DNA of 64,000 nt from Escherichia coli (GTDB lineage Bacteria > Pseudomonadota > Gammaproteobacteria > Enterobacterales > Enterobacteriaceae), in assembly GCF_003018115.1 (NCBI RefSeq), contig NZ_CP027457.1; one strand, written 5' to 3'. Position numbers and translations under genes: made by a program. Positions 7,689 through 63,000 of this stretch are shown one piece after another. The stretch's first letter is position 1, and the number at the start of each line of letters is the position of its first letter. The notes below the pieces were generated by a model. That model ran no database searches and was not told the origin of the DNA. It was given only the letters and a program-made list of their open reading frames with translations.

Positions 7689-7920
7689 ATGTTTAAGCCC
7701 AGGATTTGCAGCTGGATAGGTTTACTTCTCCTGTTTATGCTGAGTACTTCCAGTACAGGCGGAACTTCGATGTGTTGCAAATGCAGTTGATATTGAACCA
7801 TTTTTTTCTGCGGCTACCGCTGAAGATAAACAACAAGTTGAACAAGCTATCAACAGTAGCGTGAATCTTGTCCCTTCGGTTTATCTGCATCGGACTGGAA
7901 AGTGCATCGTGGCGATTTAG
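7689..7920 (+). pseudogene. decayed ORF remnant: 33-codon signal-peptide-like ORF (MFKPRICSWIGLLLLFMLSTSS...) then protein-like sequence continuing in a second frame (...AEDKQQVEQAINSSVNLVPSVYLHRTGK) before the 7902 ORF
   Basis: Three successive frames each carry short protein-like stretches separated by stops; read directly from sequence. Confidence 0.3.
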
Positions 7921-9362
7921 TGGTAGAAGGTAATATAGAGAGTAATCAAAAATTGATTGTTCTTGGCAATTTGACAGTCAAAGGTAATATTTCCACTTTC
8001 TCTCTTTCTAATCCATGGGTTATTCTCGGTAACGTGACGGCAACGAATATAGTTACGGATTCACCACTGTTAATTACCGGTTCGATAAATGCAAGTGGAC
8101 TGGTATTTATCGACTCATATTACGATAATCCGTCTACGATTAAGGGGAGTATTAATGCGCGTGGGATATTTATCAATGACATAATTGCACCTGTTGTTGC
8201 GTCTTCGACAAATAGTGAATTCATGGTCCGTGCGAGTGACAAAAATGACACTGAAAATGTCAAAAAAGCGCTGATGATAATAAATCCTGATGCATATTAT
8301 TGGGGTCTAATTAATGATGAAGATGCTCTGAAAGAAATTTTTAAGCGAAGCAATATTCGCATGGCAGGGAATGTCTGTAATCAGATGAAAAAAGAAGCGC
8401 TGTTTCGCCCTAAGCCTTCTCCTGAGTTAGTGCAGGAATTGCAAATGCTGGATGAAGGCAACGTTGCTGCATTTGAAGGACGAGATATTGCGACATTTGA
8501 TCTTGCCATAATGCGAACTCTCCCAAGGCTTAAAGGAATTTCAGCTAACCTACGCAAACAACTTATTGTTACATTACGTATTCGTACCTGGTGGGGTATC
8601 GTCATTTGTTTTTCACTGGTGATTTCAGGTCCACGCTGGATGACGTTGACGTTTTTTGCGCTGATAAGTTTTCTGGCATTGAAAGAATATTGTACGCTTA
8701 TATCCGTACATTTTCCGCGTTGGTTATATTTGGTTATTCCTCTTAACTATTTGCTTATCGGTTTTAATTGCTTTGAGCTGTTTCTGTTATTTATACCTTT
8801 GACTGGGTTTCTGATATTAGCCACCTGGCGAGTTTTTGTGGGTGATCCCTCCGGTTTTCTGCATATCGTGAGCGCCATTTTTTGGGGCTGGATAATGACC
8901 GTTTTCGCCTTGAGTCATACCGCCTGGCTATTAATGTTGCCAACCATAAATATCCAGGGCGGGGCGTTACTGGTGTTATTTCTTTTGGCGTTAACCGGGT
9001 CAAACAATATTGCACAGTATTTATGGGGGAAATCCTGCGGCAGAAGAAAAGTGGTCCCCAAAGTCAGCCCGGGAAAAACGCTGGAAGGTCTGGTGGGGGG
9101 CGTCATCACCACCATGATTGCGTCACTGATTATTGGGCCGTTGCTGACACCGCTAAATACATTACAGGCATTATTAGCGGGTTTGTTAATTGGTATTAGT
9201 GGTTTTTGCGGCGATGTAGTGATGTCAGCCATCAAACGAGATATTGGTGTTAAAGATAGTGGAAAACTATTACCAGGACATGGCGGACTCCTTGACAGGA
9301 TTGACTCATTAATTTTCACCGCTACGGTATTTTTTTATTTTATTCGCTACTGCTGTTACTGA
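7902..9362 (+). CDS. ynbB: CdsA-family (CDP-diglyceride synthase-like, YnbB-type) integral membrane protein carrying an unusual soluble N-terminal extension of about 200 aa with G-N-I/V repeats (beta-helix/bactofilin-like)
   Basis: C-terminal half has the phosphatidate cytidylyltransferase signature (PKVSPGKTLEG ... GHGGLLDRIDS) and multiple TM helices; start is uncertain, an internal ATG at 8445 with AGGA 8 nt upstream is an alternative. Confidence 0.6.
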   Translation: MHRGDLVVEGNIESNQKLIVLGNLTVKGNISTFSLSNPWVILGNVTATNIVTDSPLLITGSINASGLVFIDSYYDNPSTIKGSINARGIFINDIIAPVVASSTNSEFMVRASDKNDTENVKKALMIINPDAYYWGLINDEDALKEIFKRSNIRMAGNVCNQMKKEALFRPKPSPELVQELQMLDEGNVAAFEGRDIATFDLAIMRTLPRLKGISANLRKQLIVTLRIRTWWGIVICFSLVISGPRWMTLTFFALISFLALKEYCTLISVHFPRWLYLVIPLNYLLIGFNCFELFLLFIPLTGFLILATWRVFVGDPSGFLHIVSAIFWGWIMTVFALSHTAWLLMLPTINIQGGALLVLFLLALTGSNNIAQYLWGKSCGRRKVVPKVSPGKTLEGLVGGVITTMIASLIIGPLLTPLNTLQALLAGLLIGISGFCGDVVMSAIKRDIGVKDSGKLLPGHGGLLDRIDSLIFTATVFFYFIRYCCY

Positions 9363-9377
9363 AGGAAAATAGAGAAA

Positions 9378-12441
<3,064 letters not shown>

Positions 12442-24388: not shown

Positions 24389-25312
24389 TCAGAACGGCAT
24401 TGATTTTCGAATAGCGTTAATCATCAACTGGCAACCAGAAGAGAACGTCGCATCTACGCGGGTCAGTATTCCAATCGGTTCGCCTGCACCATGTCCCGGA
24501 ACAGGCAGGGCCACCAGCGTGGCATGACGCAGGTCGTCTTTTACCGCGCCAGAAGGGACAAACCACACGTAGTCGTATTCAACCGTAAGTTGACGAGATA
24601 GCGAAGCAGACAGCGTTTCGATACAACCCGAAGGAATTTTACAGCCCTGGCTCTGCACTAATGCATCTGAATGCTGGCGTGGCGCAGTGCCTTCTGGCGA
24701 TACAACGACCGGCCATTCCAGCACCCGGCTTAGCGTTACGTTCTCCTGAAGTAGCGGGTGATTAGGGCGGACAACCAGCTTCAGCGATTCAAGAAACAGC
24801 AGTTCGTAATTAAGCCCGGTCATCAGTTCAGGATCTGACATCCGACCAATGCCGATATCGATTTCCCCGGTTTTTAAACCCGCCAGAATCATAGGGTTAC
24901 TCATTGTCGCAACTTGCAAGGTCGTCTCTTTTTGTTGCTGATGAAACTGACCTATAACCGAAGGTAATATCCCCAGTGCCGCAGTAGGTAGTGCACCAAC
25001 CCTGACGACATCATTATTAAGACCTTCTTTACGATGAAGCGACTGTCCGGCAGTGTTGATGGCGTCAAGAACTCTGACTGCATGCGTTAAAAATTGTTCG
25101 CCGGGTAAGGTAAGTTGCGCCCCCTGACGGCCACGCTCAAACAAGCGAGCGCCAGTCAGCTGCTCCAGTTCATTCAATGTCTTAGAGAGCGCAGGTTGAC
25201 TCAAATTAAGGGTTTCAGCCGCGCGCCCCAAAGTTCCTTGTTGTGCGACAGCTACGAATGTATGAAGGTGGCGCAAACGGATGCGCTGACTAAACAGACT
25301 ATTTTTTTCCAT
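24389..25312 (-). CDS. ydcI: LysR-family transcriptional regulator
   Basis: Internal ATG giving MEKNSLFSQRIRLRHLHTFVAVAQQGTLGRAAETLNLSQPALSKT... (HTH), 307 aa. Confidence 0.85.
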   Translation of the reverse strand: MEKNSLFSQRIRLRHLHTFVAVAQQGTLGRAAETLNLSQPALSKTLNELEQLTGARLFERGRQGAQLTLPGEQFLTHAVRVLDAINTAGQSLHRKEGLNNDVVRVGALPTAALGILPSVIGQFHQQQKETTLQVATMSNPMILAGLKTGEIDIGIGRMSDPELMTGLNYELLFLESLKLVVRPNHPLLQENVTLSRVLEWPVVVSPEGTAPRQHSDALVQSQGCKIPSGCIETLSASLSRQLTVEYDYVWFVPSGAVKDDLRHATLVALPVPGHGAGEPIGILTRVDATFSSGCQLMINAIRKSMPF

Positions 25313-25528
25313 AAGCGATGTTAAAAACGAAGCGGTGTCGCTGACAAGTGAAGTTGTTTGATTATGATAACTTGATTGCAAAATATTATTAACAATTAAA
25401 GCAATTATGTTACAGCAAAATGGATAATATTGATGTTTTCGCGGCGAGATCACAGTTTGTAAATTCTTCCCGCCAGAGTGAATGCGGTTACCTACACTCC
25501 AGATTACTGACCACTGGAGGCAGACACT

Positions 25529-26550
25529 ATGGCGAACAGCATCACGGCGGATGAGATTCGGGAACAGTTTTCGCAGGCAATGTCAGCCATGTACCAGCAA
25601 GAAGTTCCGCAATATGGCACGCTGCTGGAACTGGTAGCTGATGTGAATCTGGCTGTGCTGGAAAACAATCCTCAACTGCACGAAAAAATGGTAAATGCAG
25701 ACGAGCTGGCGCGACTGAATGTTGAACGTCATGGGGCGATTCGTGTTGGGACTGCACAAGAGCTTGCTACTCTTCGGCGGATGTTTGCCATTATGGGGAT
25801 GTACCCGGTGAGCTATTACGATCTCTCGCAGGCGGGGGTGCCGGTACATTCGACAGCATTTCGGCCCATTGATGATCCTTCTCTGGCGCGTAATCCCTTC
25901 CGCGTTTTTACCTCGTTACTCCGCCTTGAGCTTATCGAGAACGAAATTTTGCGCCAGAAAGCGGCGGAGATTCTGCGTCAGCGCGATATCTTCACCCCAC
26001 GTTGTCGACAACTGTTAGAGGAATATGAGCAGCAGGGCGGTTTTAACGAAACACAGGCACAGGAGTTTGTGCAGGAAGCCCTGGAAACGTTTCGCTGGCA
26101 CCAGTCAGCAACGGTAGATGAAGAAACCTATCGCGCCTTGCACAACGAACATCGGTTGATTGCTGATGTGGTCTGTTTTCCTGGATGCCATATCAACCAC
26201 CTGACGCCACGTACGCTGGATATTGACCGGGTGCAGTCGATGCATGGTTCCGGTACCGTCTGACGCCTTCGGGTGAGGCGCATCGTCAGGCGATTCATCC
26301 TGGAGACGATCCACAGCCCTTAATTGAACGTGGTTGGGTAATGGCGCAACCCATCACCTATGAAGATTTCTTGCCCGTTAGCGCGGCGGGGATCTTCCAG
26401 TCAAATCTGGGTAATGAAACGCAGGCACGCAGCCACGGTAATGCCAGTCGCGAAGCATTTGAGCAGGCGTTGGGTTGTCCGGTTTTGGATGAGTTCCAGC
26501 TTTATCAGGAAGCGGAAGAACGCAGTAAACGTCGCTGTGGTTTGCTTTAA
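25529..26550 (+). pseudogene. ydcJ: DUF1338-family (HglS-like) protein gene, frame-disrupted
   Basis: 244-codon ORF (25529-26263, good RBS) ends in a stop while protein-like sequence continues in frame +1 from 26227 to 26550 (...RYRLTPSGEAHRQ...YEDFLPVSAAGIFQSNLG...). Confidence 0.6.
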
Positions 26551-26774
26551 ATTCTGACCATCCGCCTTTGCAAAAATTTGCCTGATTTTACAAACGAATC
26601 AGGCTCATCCCATCGACATAAAAAAAATGCCGATTTATGCATATTCTCTCAGTTCAACAATTGGATTATTAATAAATATTGTCTAGAGTGAGCGGTCATA
26701 AATAAGCACTTTCTTGCCGCTGAAAACGACCAGCGCGGGACCATTCACAACACCAGAAGGACTCACTTTCAGGT

Positions 26775-28430
26775 ATGGATCGTAGACGATTTATTAAAGG
26801 TTCAATGGCTATGGCCGCCGTGTGCGGTACCAGCGGCATTGCTTCTCTTTTTTCTCAGGCGGCATTCGCGGCAGATTCTGATATTGCCGACGGACAAACC
26901 CAGCGTTTTGACTTCTCCATTCTACAGTCAATGGCGCATGACTTAGCGCAAACAGCGTGGCGTGGTGCGCCTCGTCCGTTACCTGACACGCTGGCGACAA
27001 TGACGCCGCAGGCTTATAACAGTATTCAATACGACGCCGAGAAATCGCTCTGGCATAACGTTGAGAACCGTCAACTGGACGCTCAGTTCTTCCATATGGG
27101 AATGGGATTCCGTCGCCGCGTTCGTATGTTTTCTGTAGATCCAGCAACACATCTGGCGCGTGAAATTCACTTTCGCCCGGAGTTGTTCAAATACAACGAT
27201 GCAGGTGTTGATACCAAACAATTAGAAGGGCAAAGCGATCTCGGCTTTGCCGGTTTTCGCGTGTTTAAAGCCCCCGAACTGGCGCGCCGTGATGTAGTAT
27301 CATTTCTCGGCGCGAGTTATTTCCGCGCCGTTGATGATACATATCAATACGGTTTGTCGGCCCGCGGCCTGGCGATCGACACTTACACCGACAGTAAAGA
27401 AGAGTTCCCCGACTTTACCGCCTTCTGGTTTGATACGGTAAAACCGGGGGCAACTACCTTTACCGTTTATGCGTTGCTCGATAGTGCCAGCATTACTGGT
27501 GCCTATAAGTTCACTATCCATTGTGAGAAAAGTCAGGTGATTATGGATGTGGAAAATCACCTGTATGCGCGCAAAGACATTAAACAGCTGGGCATTGCGC
27601 CGATGACCAGTATGTTCAGCTGCGGTACTAATGAACGTCGGATGTGCGACACCATTCATCCGCAAATTCATGACTCTGATCGTCTGTCCATGTGGCGGGG
27701 CAACGGCGAGTGGATTTGCCGTCCGCTGAATAATCCGCAAAAATTGCAGTTCAATGCTTACACCGACAACAACCCGAAAGGGTTTGGTTTATTGCAACTG
27801 GATCGTGATTTCTCCCATTATCAGGACATTATGGGCTGGTATAACAAACGCCCAAGTCTGTGGGTGGAACCGCGTAACAAGTGGGGTAAGGGCACCATCG
27901 GCCTGATGGAAATCCCAACAACGGGCGAAACGCTGGATAACATTGTCTGCTTCTGGCAGCCAGAAAAAGCTGTAAAGGCGGGTGATGAGTTTGCATTCCA
28001 GTATCGTCTGTACTGGAGTGCGCAACCGCCTGTTCATTGCCCATTAGCGCGCGTTATGGCGACGCGTACCGGCATGGGCGGTTTCCCGGAAGGTTGGGCA
28101 CCAGGTGAACACTATCCCGAAAAATGGGCGCGTCGTTTTGCCGTCGATTTCGTTGGTGGTGATCTGAAAGCTGCCGCACCAAAAGGCATTGAGCCGGTGA
28201 TTACGCTTTCCAGTGGGGAAGCGAAGCAAATCGAAATTCTCTATATTGAACCCATTGATGGTTATCGTATTCAGTTTGACTGGTATCCGACTTCGGACTC
28301 CACTGATCCGGTCGATATGCGGATGTATCTGCGTTGTCAGGGCGACGCTATCAGTGAAACATGGCTGTATCAGTATTTCCCGCCAGCGCCGGATAAACGT
28401 CAGTATGTTGACGACCGCGTGATGAGTTAA
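26775..28430 (+). CDS. opgD: glucans biosynthesis protein D (periplasmic, Tat-exported)
   Basis: 551-aa ORF with twin-arginine signal ([32 protein letters not shown]). Confidence 0.9.
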
Positions 28431-32285: not shown

Positions 32286-32377
32286 TTATTTTCACCAACA
32301 CTTTTTTTTGCCACAACACGAAGCGGCGCTTTTTGCTATAACTTAAAAAGTAATATAATCATCTCAGGAAACTATTC

Positions 32378-33051
32378 ATGCGTACCACATCATTTGCGAA
32401 AGTTGCAGCTTTATGCGGCTTGTTGGCTCTGTCTGGTTGTGCCTCTAAAATCACCCAGCCAGATAAATATTCTGGTTTTTTAAACAATTACTCTGATTTA
32501 AAAGAAACAACCTCGGCTACAGGTAAACCGGTTTTACGTTGGGTAGACCCGAGTTTTGATCAAAGCAAATATGACAGCATCGTCTGGAACCCAATCACTT
32601 ATTATCCGGTACCGAAACCTTCGACCCAGGTAGGGCAGAAAGTTCTGGATAAAATTTTGAACTATACCAACACCGAAATGAAAGAAGCGATAGCGCAGCG
32701 TAAACCACTGGTTACCACCGCTGGGCCGCGTAGTCTGATTTTCCGTGGGGCCATTACCGGTGTAGATACCAGCAAAGAAGGGCTGCAATTCTATGAAGTG
32801 GTTCCTGTTGCATTAGTGGTTGCGGGGACGCAAATGAAATGGCTACAGGCCACCGTACCATGGATACTCGCCTCTATTTTGAAGGTGAGCTGATTGATGC
32901 AGCGACTAATAAACCGGTTATCAAAGTCGTTCGTCAGGGCGAAGGTAAAGACCTGAATAACGAAAGTACGCCAATGGCTTTCGAAAATATTAAACAAGTT
33001 ATTGATGACATGGCGACCGATGCCACCATGTTTGACGTTAACAAAAAGTAG
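32378..33051 (+). pseudogene. ydcL: lipoprotein gene disrupted by a 5-bp tandem duplication (AAATG AAATG)
   Basis: Signal peptide plus lipobox (LALSGC); frame breaks at 32832-32841, so the ORF track splits it into 32378-32893 and 32839-33051; removing one AAATG copy restores one continuous 222-codon frame. Confidence 0.7.
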
Positions 33052-33582: not shown

Positions 33583-34791
33583 GTGAAACGATTACAGGCA
33601 TTTAAATTCCAGTTAAGACCAGGTGGTCAACAGAAGTGTGAAATGAGGCGCTTCGCAGGCGCATGTCGTTTCGTTTTCAATCGTGCTCTGGCACGTCAGA
33701 ATGAGAATCATGAGGCCGGTAATAAATACATCCCTTACGGGAAAATGGCTTCCTGGCTGGTTGAGTGGAAAAATGCCACTGAAACGCAATGGCTTAAAGA
33801 TTCTCCCTCACAGCCATTGCAACAGTCACTGAAAGACCTTGAGCGGGCTTACAAAAACTTCTTCCGGAAGCGGGCTGCTTTTCCCCGATTCAAAAAGCGG
33901 GGACAGAATGATGCATTCCGCTACCCGCAGGGCGTTAAGCTCGATCAGGAAAACAGCCGTATTTTTCTGCCGAAACTGGGCTGGATGCGCTACCGGAATA
34001 GCCGTCAGGTCACGGGTGTTGTGAAAAATGTCACTGTCAGCCAGTCCTGCGGTAAGTGGTACATCAGTATTCAGACAGAAAGTGAAGTATCAACTCCGGT
34101 TCACCCTTCAGCATCAATGATCGGGCTGGATGCTGGCGTGGCTAAACTCGCCACGCTGTCAGATGGCACAGTCTTTGAGCCTGTAAACAGTTTTCAGAAA
34201 AACCAGAAGACGCTGGCGAGACTTCAGCGACAGTTAAGCCGCAAGGTCAAATTCAGCAACAACTGGCAGAAGCAGAAACGCAAAATACAGCGACTGCATT
34301 CCTGTATCGCAAATATCCGCAGGGACTACCTTCACAAAGTCACAACGGCCGTCAGCAAAAACCACGCAATGATAGTCATTGAGGATTTGAAGGTCAGCAA
34401 CATGTCAAAGTCAGCAGCGGGTACGGTCAGCCAGCCGGGGCGCAATGTCCGGGCAAAATCAGGTTTAAACCGTTCGATACTGGATCAGGGCTGGTATGAA
34501 ATGCGCCGCCAGCTTGAGTACAAGCAGCTCTGGCGTGGCGGTCAGGTGCTTGCTGTTCCGCCAGCGTATACAAGCCAGCGTTGCGCGTACTGTGGTCATA
34601 CAGCGAAAGAGAACCGCCTGTCACAAAGTAAATTCAGATGCCATGTATGTGGATATACAGCGAACGCCGATGTAAATGGCGCTCGTAACATTTTAGCGGC
34701 GGGGCACGCCGTTCTTGCCTGTGGAGAGATGGTGCAGTCAGGCCGCCCGTTGAAGCAGGAACCCACCGAAATGATTCAGGCGACAGCCTGA
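33583..34791 (+). CDS. insQ: TnpB (IS605 OrfB family) RuvC-like RNA-guided-nuclease-type transposon protein
   Basis: 402-aa ORF; RuvC-like motifs ([24 protein letters not shown]) and Zn finger CAYCGH...CHVCGY. Confidence 0.85.
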
Positions 34792-57078: not shown

Positions 57079-57897
57079 AAGGATAAATGGCGTTCTCTGT
57101 ATTTATTCGCAATTATCTGTAGGACAAATATGGAGAGCTTGATGAGTCAGAGCTAAAACAGCAATTGATTAATAAACATGTTGATTTATTCAAGAAAATG
57201 GATGTATTTTAAATGTTGATTCTTAATATAACCTAATCAATAGATTATCAAGTGAGAGCTACACATTATTGGAGGGGCAGGGGAAAACACCATTTTGGGA
57301 ACAATGCATCAGGTACTCTTACCACTGAAGCAAGATCATCCGGCACCAGGTGGTGGTGCAGTGCTTTGGAAATGGTCCCCTCGGGGGAGTTGTCATTATT
57401 TTCTATGCTATTTGCTTATTATATTCATCAGGTGAATTTAATAAATTCCTAATTTGAAATATCCACTATTAAGCTAGTGTTTAACGACGTTAAGATGGCA
57501 ATGTGCAGATCATGTTATCAGGGTGGGGCGGTAGCGTATATTCCTTATACAAACCATCATTCATTTCAATGATTGTTATTGAATTATTTATTGTTGTGAA
57601 TAAAAAGACATTATGAATATTGGTTTGACTTTGCATATCAGGTTTTTTATTACTCGCTGTAATGTACGAGCCTGTCGTGAATAACGTCGAGAACCCATCC
57701 GTTGCGTTTGTGATTATTTTGTTGACTAAACAGACACCCGTTTCTCTGAAGTAAAATCCCAGACTAAATCATCACATAACCATGACATTTTTCTGATATT
57801 CCCCGGTAACGCCAGATGTCGACTCGCTTATCTCATCCGCCCGACATGTTGTACATGCAATATGTGCGGATTATTATTCATTTTCACGGAGGTTGCT

Positions 57898-60006
57898 ATG
57901 TCAACCGGATTACGTTTCACACTGGAAGTGGACGGCCTGCCACCGGACGCTTTTGCGGTGGTTTCCTTTCATCTCACCCAGTCACTCTCTTCACTCTTTT
58001 CCCTCGATCTCTCCCTGGTCAGCCAGCAGTTTCTCTCCCTTGAATTTGCGCAGGTGCTGGACAAAATGGCCTACCTGACAATATGGCAGGGTGATGATGT
58101 ACAGCGCCGGGTGAAAGGTGTGGTGACCTGGTTTGAACTGGGGGAGAACGACAAAAACCAGATGCTGTACAGCATGAAGGTGCACCCGCCGCTGTGGCGT
58201 GCCGGTCTGCGCCAGAACTTCCGTATCTTCCAGAACGAGGACATCAAAAGCATCCTCGGCACGATATTGCAGGAAAACGGGGTGACCGAGTGGAGTCCGC
58301 TGTTCAGTGAACCGCATCCTTCCCGTGAGTTTTGTGTCCAGTACGGTGAGACTGATTACGATTTCCTGTGCCGGATGGCGGCGGAGGAAGGCATCTTCTT
58401 TTATGAGGAGCATGCTTACAAAAGTACCGACCAGAGCCTGGTGCTGTGCGACACGGTCCGCCATCTGCCCGAATCTTTTGAAATCCCCTGGAACCCGAAC
58501 CCCCGTACCGAGGTGAGCACCCTCTGCATCAGCCAGTTTCGCTACAGCGCACAAATCCGCCCTTCTTCCGTGGTGACCAAAGACTACACCTTTAAACGCC
58601 CCGGCTGGGCAGGACGTTTTGATCAGGAAGGCCAGCACCAGGATTACCAGCGCACGCAGTATGAGGTGTATGACTACCCCGGACGTTTCAAGGGCGCCCA
58701 CGGGCAGAACTTTGCCCGCTGGCAGATGGAGGGCTGGCGAAACAATGCAGAAACCGCGCGGGGAATGAGTCGCTCGCCGGAGATATGGCCGGGACGGCGA
58801 ATTGTGCTGACGGGGCATCCGCAGGCGAACCTGAACCGGGAATGGCAGGTGGTGGCGAGCGATCTTCACGGCGAACAGCCGCAGGCGGTACCGGGACGCA
58901 GGGGTTCAGGCACCACGCTGGATAACCATTTTGCGGTAATACCGGCAGACCGGACATGGCGACCACAGCCGTTGCTGAAACCGCTGGTGGATGGCCCGCA
59001 GAGCGCCGTCGTGACGGGACCGGCAGGCGAGGAAATCTTCTGCGACGAACATGGTCGCGTGCGGGTGAAATTTAACTGGGACCGCTATAACCCGTCAAAC
59101 CAGGACAGTTCATGCTGGATCCGTGTGGCACAGGCGTGGGCAGGCACCGGCTTTGGCAACCTGGCGATACCGCGTGTGGGTCAGGAGGTGATTGTGGACT
59201 TCCTCAACGGCGATCCGGACCAGCCGATTATTATGGGGCGTACCTACCACCAGGAAAACCGCACACCCGGCAGCCTGCCGGGGACGAAGACGCAGATGAC
59301 CATTCGTTCGAAAACCTATAAGGGCAGCGGGTTTAATGAACTGAAGTTTGACGATGCGACAGGGAAAGAACAGGTCTACATCCACGCGCAGAAGAACATG
59401 AACACCGAGGTGCTGAATAACCGCACCACGGATGTGATAAACAACCATGCTGAGACCATTGGCAACAATCAGATGATTGCGGTTACCAACAATCAGATAC
59501 AGACGGTGGGCGTTAACCAGATAGAGACGGTGGGCAGTAACCAGATCATTAACGTGGGTTCTGTTCAGGTGGAAACGATTGGACTTGTTCGTGCGCTGAC
59601 CGTGGGCGTGGCGTACCAGACGACGGTAGGTGGCATTATGAACACTTCGGTGGCTCTGATGCAGTCCTCGCAGATCGGTTTGCATAAATCGTTGAGGGTC
59701 GGGCTGGGTTATGACGTCAAAGTCGGAAATAACGTTACCTTCACCGTTGGTAAAACGAAAAAGGATGATACCGGGCAGACCGCGATTTACTCCGCCGGTG
59801 AGCATCTGGAGCTCTGCTGTGGTAAGGCAAAGCTGGTGCTGACAAAGGACGGTCAAATTTTTCTCAACGGCACAAAAATTCATTTGCAGGGTAAGGAGCA
59901 GGTTAATGGTGACTCACTGTTGATTAACTGGAACTGTGCAGCCTCGAAATCCCCACCGAAGACCCCTGATGAAAAGCAGGATACGCCGGATATGAGAGAG
60001 TACTGA
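57898..60006 (+). CDS. vgrG: VgrG-family protein (T6SS spike, gp27/gp5-like) with Val-Gly repeat C-terminal region
   Basis: ATG at 57898 after GGAGG; MSTGLRFTLEVDGLPPDAF...; VG-rich repeats (NNQMIAVTNNQIQTVGVNQIETVGSNQIINVGSVQVETIG); high GC. Confidence 0.85.
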   Translation: MSTGLRFTLEVDGLPPDAFAVVSFHLTQSLSSLFSLDLSLVSQQFLSLEFAQVLDKMAYLTIWQGDDVQRRVKGVVTWFELGENDKNQMLYSMKVHPPLWRAGLRQNFRIFQNEDIKSILGTILQENGVTEWSPLFSEPHPSREFCVQYGETDYDFLCRMAAEEGIFFYEEHAYKSTDQSLVLCDTVRHLPESFEIPWNPNPRTEVSTLCISQFRYSAQIRPSSVVTKDYTFKRPGWAGRFDQEGQHQDYQRTQYEVYDYPGRFKGAHGQNFARWQMEGWRNNAETARGMSRSPEIWPGRRIVLTGHPQANLNREWQVVASDLHGEQPQAVPGRRGSGTTLDNHFAVIPADRTWRPQPLLKPLVDGPQSAVVTGPAGEEIFCDEHGRVRVKFNWDRYNPSNQDSSCWIRVAQAWAGTGFGNLAIPRVGQEVIVDFLNGDPDQPIIMGRTYHQENRTPGSLPGTKTQMTIRSKTYKGSGFNELKFDDATGKEQVYIHAQKNMNTEVLNNRTTDVINNHAETIGNNQMIAVTNNQIQTVGVNQIETVGSNQIINVGSVQVETIGLVRALTVGVAYQTTVGGIMNTSVALMQSSQIGLHKSLRVGLGYDVKVGNNVTFTVGKTKKDDTGQTAIYSAGEHLELCCGKAKLVLTKDGQIFLNGTKIHLQGKEQVNGDSLLINWNCAASKSPPKTPDEKQDTPDMREY

Positions 60007-60073: not shown

Positions 60074-63000
60074 ATGAGCGGAAAACCAGCGGCGCGTCAG
60101 GGAGATATGACTCAGTATGGCGGTCCCATTGTCCAGGGTTCGGCAGGTGTAAGAATTGGCGCGCCAACTGGCGTGGCGTGCTCGGTGTGTCCGGGCGGGA
60201 TGACCTCGGGCAACCCGGTGAACCCGCTGCTCGGTGCAAAAGTACAGCCCGGCGAGACGGACCTTGCGCTGCCCGGCCCGCTGCCGTTCATTCTCTCCCG
60301 CACCTACAGCAGCTACCGGACCCGGACGCCTGCACCGGTGGGCGTTTTCGGCCCCGGCTGGAAAGCGCCTTCTGATATCCGCTTACAGCTACGTGATGAC
60401 GGACTGATACTCAACGACAACGGCGGGCGGAGCATTCACTTTGAGCCGCTGCTGCCAGGGGAGGCGGTGTACAGCCGCAGCGAGTCCCTGTGGCTGGTGC
60501 GCGGTGGTAAGGCAGCACAGCCGGACGGCCATACGCTGGCACGGCTGTGGGCGTCGCTGCCGCCGGATATCCGGTTAAGCCCGCATCTTTACCTGGCGAC
60601 CAACAGCGCACAGGGGCCGTGGTGGATACTGGGGTGGTCTGAGCGGGTGCCGGGTGCTGAGGACGTACTGCCAGCGCCGCTGCCGCCGTACCGGGTGCTT
60701 ACCGGGATGGCGGACCGCTTCGGGCGGACGCTGACGTACCGGCGTGACGGACGGTGCCGGGCGTGAGTTCCGTCTGGTGCTGACCACACAGGCGCAGCGG
60801 GCGGAAGAGGCCCGGCAGCAGGCGGTCGTCGCCGGAGCAAAACGACCGGACATTCCTGATTCACTGCCGGAGAGCACAGAGTACGGCCCCGACAGGGGTA
60901 TCCGTCTTTCAGCGGTGTGGCTGATGCACGACCCGGCATACCCGGAGAATCTGCCCGGTGCGCCACTGGCGCGGTACACGTATACGGAAGCCGGTGAACT
61001 GCTGGCGGTATATGACCGCAGCAATACGCAGGTGCGTGCTTTCACGTATGACCCGCAGCACCCGGGCCGGATGGTGGCGCACCGTTACGCGGGAAGGCCG
61101 GAGATGCGCTACCGCTACGACGATACGGGGCGGGTGGTGGAGCAACTGAACCCGGCAGGGTTAAGCTACCGCTATCTTTATGAGCAGGACCGCATCACCG
61201 TCACCGACAGCCTGAACCGGCGTGAGGTGCTGCATACAGAAGGCGGGGCCGGGCTGAAGCGGGTGGTGAAAAAAGAACTGGCGGACGGCAGCGTCACGCG
61301 CAGCGGGTATGACCCGGTGGGGCGGCTTACGGCGCAGACGGACGCGGCGGGACGGCGGACAGAGTACGGTCTGAATGTGGTGTCAGTCGACATCACGGAT
61401 ATCACCACGCCGGACGGGCGGGAGACGAAATTTTACTATAACGACGGGAACCAGTTAACGGCAGTGGTGTACCCGGACGGGCTGGAGAGCAGCCGGGCAT
61501 ATGATGAGCTGGACAGGCTGGTAACGGAGACATCGCGCAGCGGGGAGACAGTACGCTACCGCTATGATGATGCGCACAGTGAATTACCGGCCACAACAAC
61601 AGATGCGACGGGCAGCACCCGGCAGATGACGTGGAGCCGCTACGGTCAGTTGCTGGCGTTCACCGACTGCTCGGGCTACCAGACCCGCTATGAATACGAC
61701 CGCTTCGGCCAGATGACGGCGGTCCACCGCGAGGAAGGCATCAGCCTTTACCGCCGCTATGACAACCGTGGCCGGTTAATCTCGGTGAAAGACGCACAGG
61801 GCCATGAAACGCGGTATGAATACAACGCCGCAGGCGACCTGACTGCCCTCATTACCCCGGACGGCAACCGGAGCGAGACACAGTACGATGCGTGGGGAAA
61901 GGCGGTCAGCACCACGCAGGGCGGGCTGACGCGCAGTATGGAATACGACCTTGCCGGACGCATCACCACGCTGACCAACGAGAACGGCAGCCGGAGTGAG
62001 TTTACCTACGATGCGCTTGACCGGCTGGTACAGCAGCGCGGCTTTGACGGGCGGACGCAACGTTACCACTATGACCTGACCGGAAAACTCACGCAGAGTG
62101 AAGATGAGGGGCTTGTCACCCTCTGGCACTACGACGAATCGGACCGCCTCACTCACCGCACGGTGAACGGCGAACCGGCAGAGCAGTGGCAGTATGATGG
62201 CCACGGCTGGCTGACAGAAATCAGCCACCTGAGCGAAGGCCATCAGGTGGCGGTGCATTACGGTTATGATGATAAGGGCCGCCTGGCCGGGGAGCGCCAG
62301 ACGGTGCATAACCCGGAGACGGGGGAACTGCTGTGGCAGCATGAGACAGAGCACGCATACAACGAACAGGGGCTGGCAAACCGCGTCACGCCGGACGGCC
62401 TGCCGCGGGTGGAGTGGCTGACCTACGGCAGCGGTTATCTTGCGGGGATGAAGCTGGGCGGGACACCTCTGGTCGAGTATACGCGGGACCGCCTGCACCG
62501 GGAAACTGCGCGCAGCTTTGGTAACGGAACGGGCAGTACAGCCGCATATGAACTGACCAGCACTTACACCCCCGCAGGCCGGTTACAGAGCCAGCACCTG
62601 AACAGCCTGATGTATGACCGTGACTACGTGTGGAATGACAACGGCGACCTGGTGCGCATCAGCGGCCCGCGACAGACGCGGGAATACGGCTACAGCGCCA
62701 CGGGCAGGCTGGAGAGCGTGCGCACCCTCGCACCGGACCTGGACATCCGCATCCCGTATGCCACCGACCCGGCGGGAAACCGGCTGCCGGACCCGGAGCT
62801 ACACCCGGACAGCACGCTCACGGCGTGGCCGGATAACCGCATCGCGGAGGATGCGCACTATGTTTACCACTATGATGAATACGGCAGGCTGACGGAGAAG
62901 ACGGACCGCATCCCGGCGGGTGTGATACGGACGGACGACGAGCGGACCCACCACTACCACTACGACAGCCAGCACCGTCTGGTGTTCTACACGCGGATAC

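Follow-up and report, generated by a model that had tools for sequence, protein, structure and literature searches.

Probable loss of hglS (ydcJ) through a 322-bp internal deletion in an Escherichia coli strain

HglS of Pseudomonas putida (PP_5260; PDB 6W1G/6W1H), the prototype of its family, has been characterised both biochemically and structurally. Its metal ligands are His70, His226 and Glu294, the distal carboxylate is bound by Arg74, whose replacement (R74A) abolishes activity, and a loop with Val402/Ser403 contacts the substrate (PMC7286885). The E. coli homologue YdcJ, with a structure (2RJB) containing the same motif, converts 2OA (2-oxoadipate) to 2HG (2-hydroxyglutarate) in vitro (PMC7286885). 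A role in D-lysine catabolism has been demonstrated in P. putida, whereas the pathway context in E. coli is unresolved (PMC7286885). In the literature we found nothing specific on ydcJ pseudogenes or on an E. coli ydcJ phenotype.

We analysed a 64,000-nucleotide stretch of an E. coli genome (contig NZ_CP027457.1), hereafter the window, which carries the trg-ydcI-ydcJ(hglS)-opgD region of E. coli at ~22.7-28.4 kb. The synteny trg-ydcI-hglS-opgD is identical in the window and its relatives, the retained parts are 100% identical, and on sequence grounds the locus is hglS by descent. It shares its chromosomal position, promoter and ribosome-binding site (RBS) with the gene for YdcJ of E. coli/Shigella, that is, HglS (PDB 2RJB; PF07063/DUF1338; NF049974), and WP_032200917.1, the HglS of strain F9792, matches it with 100% identity in residues 1-238 and 346-447. 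In contrast to intact E. coli HglS, codons 239-345 are missing, the remainder is frameshifted and the glutamate of the metal-binding triad is lost. The retained parts align throughout with the P. putida enzyme: counterparts of His70, Arg74 and His226 lie in the 5' fragment, whereas that of Glu294 is deleted and those of Val402/Ser403 are out of frame. We consider it likely that hglS is a pseudogene here, created by a single 322-bp internal deletion, null in effect and very recent.

Reading frames at the hglS locus

The gene starts with an ATG at 25529 on the plus strand, preceded at a distance of 8 nt by the Shine-Dalgarno motif GGAGG (25516..25520, plus strand), the same as in close relatives. 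The open reading frame (ORF) that follows (25529..26263, plus strand) comprises 244 codons: residues 1-238 of HglS, then the six out-of-frame residues HGSGTV and a premature TGA at 26261-26263, six codons past the deletion junction (26242..26243, plus strand), at which 322 bp of the intact gene are missing. The initial annotation had drawn the ORF at 25529-26263 with a strong RBS, and these coordinates proved correct. It had also described a protein-like second frame at 26227-26550. This frame opens at 26227, immediately behind a TGA (26224-26226), and ends with the stop at 26548-26550; both Pfam and NCBIfam recognise in it the C-terminal part of HglS. The 3' remnant proper (26242..26550, plus strand) encodes residues 346-447 in a frame that differs from that of the start codon, and is therefore not reached by translation from that codon. 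A 69-aa ORF, corresponding to HglS residues 379-447, begins at an internal ATG (26341).

Against the Pfam profile PF07063 (HGLS; cutoff 25 bits), the 5' fragment covers positions 1-221 of 386 (327.4 bits, E = 2e-97) and the 3' fragment positions 336-386 (49.9 bits, E = 3.8e-13). The NCBIfam model NF049974 is matched at positions 1-234 of 451 by the former (432.3 bits) and at 351-449 of 451 by the latter (120.1 bits), with positions 235-350 missing from both. As both fragments match the ends of the HglS models, they are real pieces of HglS and not chance ORFs. Both score below the curated equivalog cutoff of 550 bits, which names functional HglS, whereas an intact relative reaches 740.4 bits.

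The surroundings of the gene are well preserved. The divergent LysR-type regulator gene ydcI (24389..25312, minus strand; 307 aa), which adjoins hglS, is intact and carries one single-nucleotide polymorphism (SNP) private to the window (25130), a synonymous one; between 25131 and 25838 the window shows zero differences from its relatives. Downstream, opgD (26775..28430, plus strand; 551 aa) is intact as well, and the 224-bp hglS-opgD intergenic region is identical to that of relatives.

The deletion junction and how it may have arisen

A query covering 25400-26700 was searched by megablast against 5,426 complete E. coli genomes and was found in 5,417 of them. In the top-listed matches, its 1,301 bases align as two pieces that together extend over 1,623 bases. 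When the window was compared by exact split analysis with the closest complete genome (strain F9792, NZ_CP024273), exactly 322 bp proved to be absent, while the other 1,301 bp align with 0 mismatches. The missing nucleotides 715-1036 of the gene correspond to codons 239-345 plus 1 nt (322 = 3 × 107 + 1), and it is this length that shifts the frame and yields residues 1-238, HGSGTV and the stop. The initial annotation had thus located the lesion well: the frame-changing indel it expected within 26227-26263 lies at 26242/26243, and the deletion it put at about 320 bp, not a multiple of three, is one clean loss of 322 bp when aligned to intact hglS. Its figures of about 340 combined codons and about 447 residues for YdcJ agree with 238 + 102 = 340 retained codons and with the 447 codons of the intact reference gene. 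Alignment to reference hglS, the check it had called for, showed one uninterrupted frame of 447 codons in all genomes inspected, which excludes a two-frame structure in the reference.

Microhomology at the junction amounts to 1 bp, namely G26242, which ends the Met238 codon and at the same time begins the Ala346 codon. No insertion sequence (IS) element, scar or foreign DNA was found at the junction, the deleted segment has been neither relocated nor inverted within the window, and no direct repeat with a spacing of ~322 bp brackets the endpoints in the intact sequence; elsewhere in the latter only chance imperfect repeats of 8-17 nt occur. A 5-nt inverted match (ATGCC/GGCAT) at the two deletion endpoints was judged to be at chance level. 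With 1 bp of microhomology and neither repeat, IS nor scar, the deletion would be best attributed to RecA-independent illegitimate recombination or to replication slippage.

Could the deletion be a knock-out allele engineered in the laboratory? It is internal and inactivating, it occurs in no natural isolate searched, and its junction coincidentally forms an NsiI site (ATGCAT). This hexamer is, however, absent from both parental endpoints, which rules out an origin by restriction and ligation. Nor is there an FRT/loxP scar, vector sequence or any remnant of a cassette; with its arbitrary endpoints and 340 codons spared, the deletion differs from designed ones, and the nearby ydcL and Rhs lesions described below resemble spontaneous slippage. 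We regard deliberate construction as very unlikely.

Still less credible is the idea that the two-frame gene is functional, be it by programmed frameshifting or by reassembly of the two products of a split gene. It could appeal to the open frames and family similarity of both fragments and to the internal ATG at 26341 in the 3' part. Every relative, however, has a single 447-codon frame, and the 36 nt over which the two frames overlap result from the deletion and do not represent a conserved slippery site. Moreover, 107 codons, including that of the metal ligand E290, are physically gone, and no frameshift could restore them; the missing 322 bp effectively refute a functional two-frame gene.

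Predicted consequences for HglS

Residues were mapped by means of phmmer, which aligned intact E. coli HglS with 6W1G (E = 2.3e-158). In E. coli numbering, His70, His226 and Glu294 of the P. putida enzyme become H68, H224 and E290, Arg74 becomes R72, and Val402/Ser403 become V391/S392. The 5' fragment keeps H68 and R72 (both in ERHGAIR, residues 66-72) as well as H224. E290 (in FGEIEQ, residues 288-293) falls inside the deleted codons 239-345 and leaves the His-His-Glu triad incomplete, and V391/S392 (in LPVSAAG, which begins at residue 389) are still encoded, but out of frame and past the premature stop. The 244-aa product is thus deprived of one of three metal ligands and of 209 of the 447 residues.

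In the mechanism that we propose, hglS, encoding an Fe(II)-dependent 2-oxoadipate dioxygenase/decarboxylase that turns 2-oxoadipate and O2 into D-2-hydroxyglutarate and CO2, would have been inactivated by the single 322-bp internal deletion. With promoter and RBS unchanged, transcription and translation of the locus probably continue and yield a 244-aa stub, which, deprived of Glu290, would bind Fe(II) improperly and would not support catalysis. As the third metal ligand, the rest of the fold core and the C-terminal substrate loop are all missing, the allele is almost certainly null. The promoter, the RBS, ydcI and the hglS-opgD intergenic region are unaltered, and no effect is therefore expected beyond the loss of HglS itself. 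We know of no essential role of HglS in E. coli, and its loss is for this reason assumed to be most likely neutral, or nearly so.

It follows that hglS should be annotated as a pseudogene and the strain as hglS-negative; the prediction is that it cannot convert 2-oxoadipate to D-2-hydroxyglutarate. As a natural null, it could serve to probe the role of YdcJ/HglS in the lysine/2-oxoadipate metabolism of E. coli.

Distribution of the allele and other indels in the window

The set of 5,426 complete E. coli genomes and the gene collection used here do not include the window's own genome. A 50-mer spanning the junction, with halves too short to seed separately, was absent from this set, and a junction 40-mer was absent from the GTDB representatives (one genome per species), from JGI metagenome contigs and from the related loci compared. 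Likewise, the 244-aa product had no exact match among 153 billion gene positions. The deleted 322 bp, on the other hand, are present in 5,412 of the 5,426 complete genomes, which makes hglS a near-core gene.

The 69-aa ORF of the 3' part is on record in 10 contigs; gene callers choose it only in other assemblies that are broken or noisy. An allele shared with these contigs was considered and rejected: none of the 10 has the window's junction, the breaks are different ones, and most of the contigs are short and of low coverage. The longest (13 kb) carries a 354-aa piece and the 69-aa ORF across a full-length gene.

The nearest draft genomes were chosen by an identical 1,300-aa HrpA (23 contigs read, representing four distinct gene contexts). 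Over 23.6 kb these relatives are 3-8 SNPs away from the window. Each of them encodes an intact 447-aa HglS, as do 10 further loci; relatives anchored on YdcK, at 98.6-99% identity, are too distant to be informative. Intact hglS in near-identical relatives would place the deletion on the terminal branch leading to the window genome and thus make it very recent. As judged from these comparisons, the event is a very recent mutation private to the strain or, less likely, an assembly error. The allele is new to the collections searched, and the kind of event is entirely familiar, that of an ordinary pseudogene: as in other strain-specific pseudogenes (e.g., the Rhs core gene of strain BE311), a single spontaneous indel has struck a conserved gene with no mobile element involved. 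An origin of the lesion in a Shigella-like, pseudogene-rich genome was rejected, as 58.6 kb of the window are collinear with E. coli; the lack of IS insertions compared with the reference and the apparently intact paa and trg genes also disfavour such an origin.

Other differences were assessed against the nearest relatives of each region, all of them 1-3 SNPs away from the window: L014/L015 (3.3-26.9 kb), L028/L031 (26.7-48.7 kb) and L033 (40.9-63.0 kb). Three further indels deserve attention. Between tehB and ydcL, 76 bp upstream of the ATG of the latter, a run of seven T residues has become eight (32302). Neither the O169:H41 reference nor relatives L028-L031 have the extra T, which may have arisen by a natural slip or be a sequencing error in a homopolymer. 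In ydcL itself, coding for a DUF3313 lipoprotein (ORF 32378..32893), a 5-bp tandem duplication (AAATG to AAATGAAATG, 32832-32836) shifts the frame after residue 153 of 222 and results in a 171-aa product. The duplication is absent from relatives L028, L030 and L031 and from all complete E. coli genomes searched, and the frameshifted product is not on record.

The third indel is a 38-bp deletion between 10-bp direct repeats (ACCGGCGTGA, 60738-60747) in an Rhs core gene (ORF 60074..60766) downstream of vgrG; it reduces the product to 230 aa, compared with 1,404 aa in L033, a near-identical relative. Four complete genomes (BE311, F41, K99S and EC24.26) share this junction. In BE311 the gene is annotated as 'frameshifted' and its surroundings are only 92-97% identical to the window, so that the deletion looks like a recurrent slip; from this pattern it is probably a hotspot event and a natural allele type. 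The two deletions in the window differ in this respect: flanking homology is almost nil at hglS (1 bp), but the Rhs deletion is bounded by 10-bp direct repeats and recurs in unrelated lineages.

Altogether, three private indels and the Rhs deletion stand against ~2-3 private SNPs within 3301-62953 (~60 kb): 12134 T/C (P337L in YnbD), 25130 G/A (the synonymous change in ydcI) and perhaps 58263 G/T (synonymous in vgrG, checked against one relative only). The YnbD-L337 protein variant is not on record. In mutation-accumulation studies of E. coli, indels are about ten-fold rarer than substitutions, and an indel:SNP ratio of ~1 or more is therefore unusual. It may reflect the quality of the record or an indel-prone history of the strain.

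The former possibility bears directly on hglS, as the deletion might itself be an assembly or consensus error in a genome with an intact gene. Such an error would account for a junction and a 244-aa product found in no other public sequence; the window differs from near-identical relatives by other indels too, with no more than ~2-3 private SNPs beside them, the extra T at 32302 is of a classic error type, and the excess of indels over SNPs could be read in the same way. Yet assemblers and basecallers do not usually produce a clean 322-bp loss with 1 bp of homology in sequence that is unique and non-repetitive, and at hglS there was no repeat for an assembler to collapse. Homopolymer errors are not widespread (one in ~60 kb), and the 38-bp Rhs deletion exists in four independent complete genomes, with an annotated frameshift, which shows that at least this type of lesion is genuine. 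We consider an error at hglS unlikely and retain a real deletion as the preferred reading. Several private indels in one window nevertheless mean that the reads behind the record need to be checked before its pseudogenes are interpreted biologically.

A genuine hglS deletion might, in turn, be one symptom of an indel-rich mutational history of the strain, a suggestion that we make tentatively and hold to be rather unlikely. Possible causes would be a defect in replication or repair that favours slippage and illegitimate recombination, prolonged storage or bottlenecking, or exposure to DNA-breaking agents. If true and genome-wide, such a history would imply hundreds of recent frame-breaking lesions.

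Some structural differences were noted in addition. The vgrG/Rhs locus is the structurally most variable part of the window. In the comparison with NZ_CP024263.1 (58608-61131), the closest complete genomes (O169:H41) have a truncated vgrG/Rhs locus with IS21 and ISEc1 insertions; the window and the draft relative L033 keep a full-length vgrG (ORF 57862..60006, 714 aa) and the 5' region of Rhs. At 7872 and 12340 (ynbA/ynbB and ynbD region) the O169:H41 reference NZ_CP024263.1 has frameshifts and the genes are annotated as pseudogenes; the frames of the window are open there (7902..9362 and 11050..12441). The two sequences also differ by an in-frame 6-bp GCGCGT repeat unit at 11801. Finally, a remnant of the IS200/IS605 family, common to the reference genomes and unconnected with the hglS deletion, lies between ydcL and ydcO (~33.0-34.8 kb) and comprises a tnpA pseudogene together with an insQ/TnpB-like ORF (33583..34791, 402 aa).
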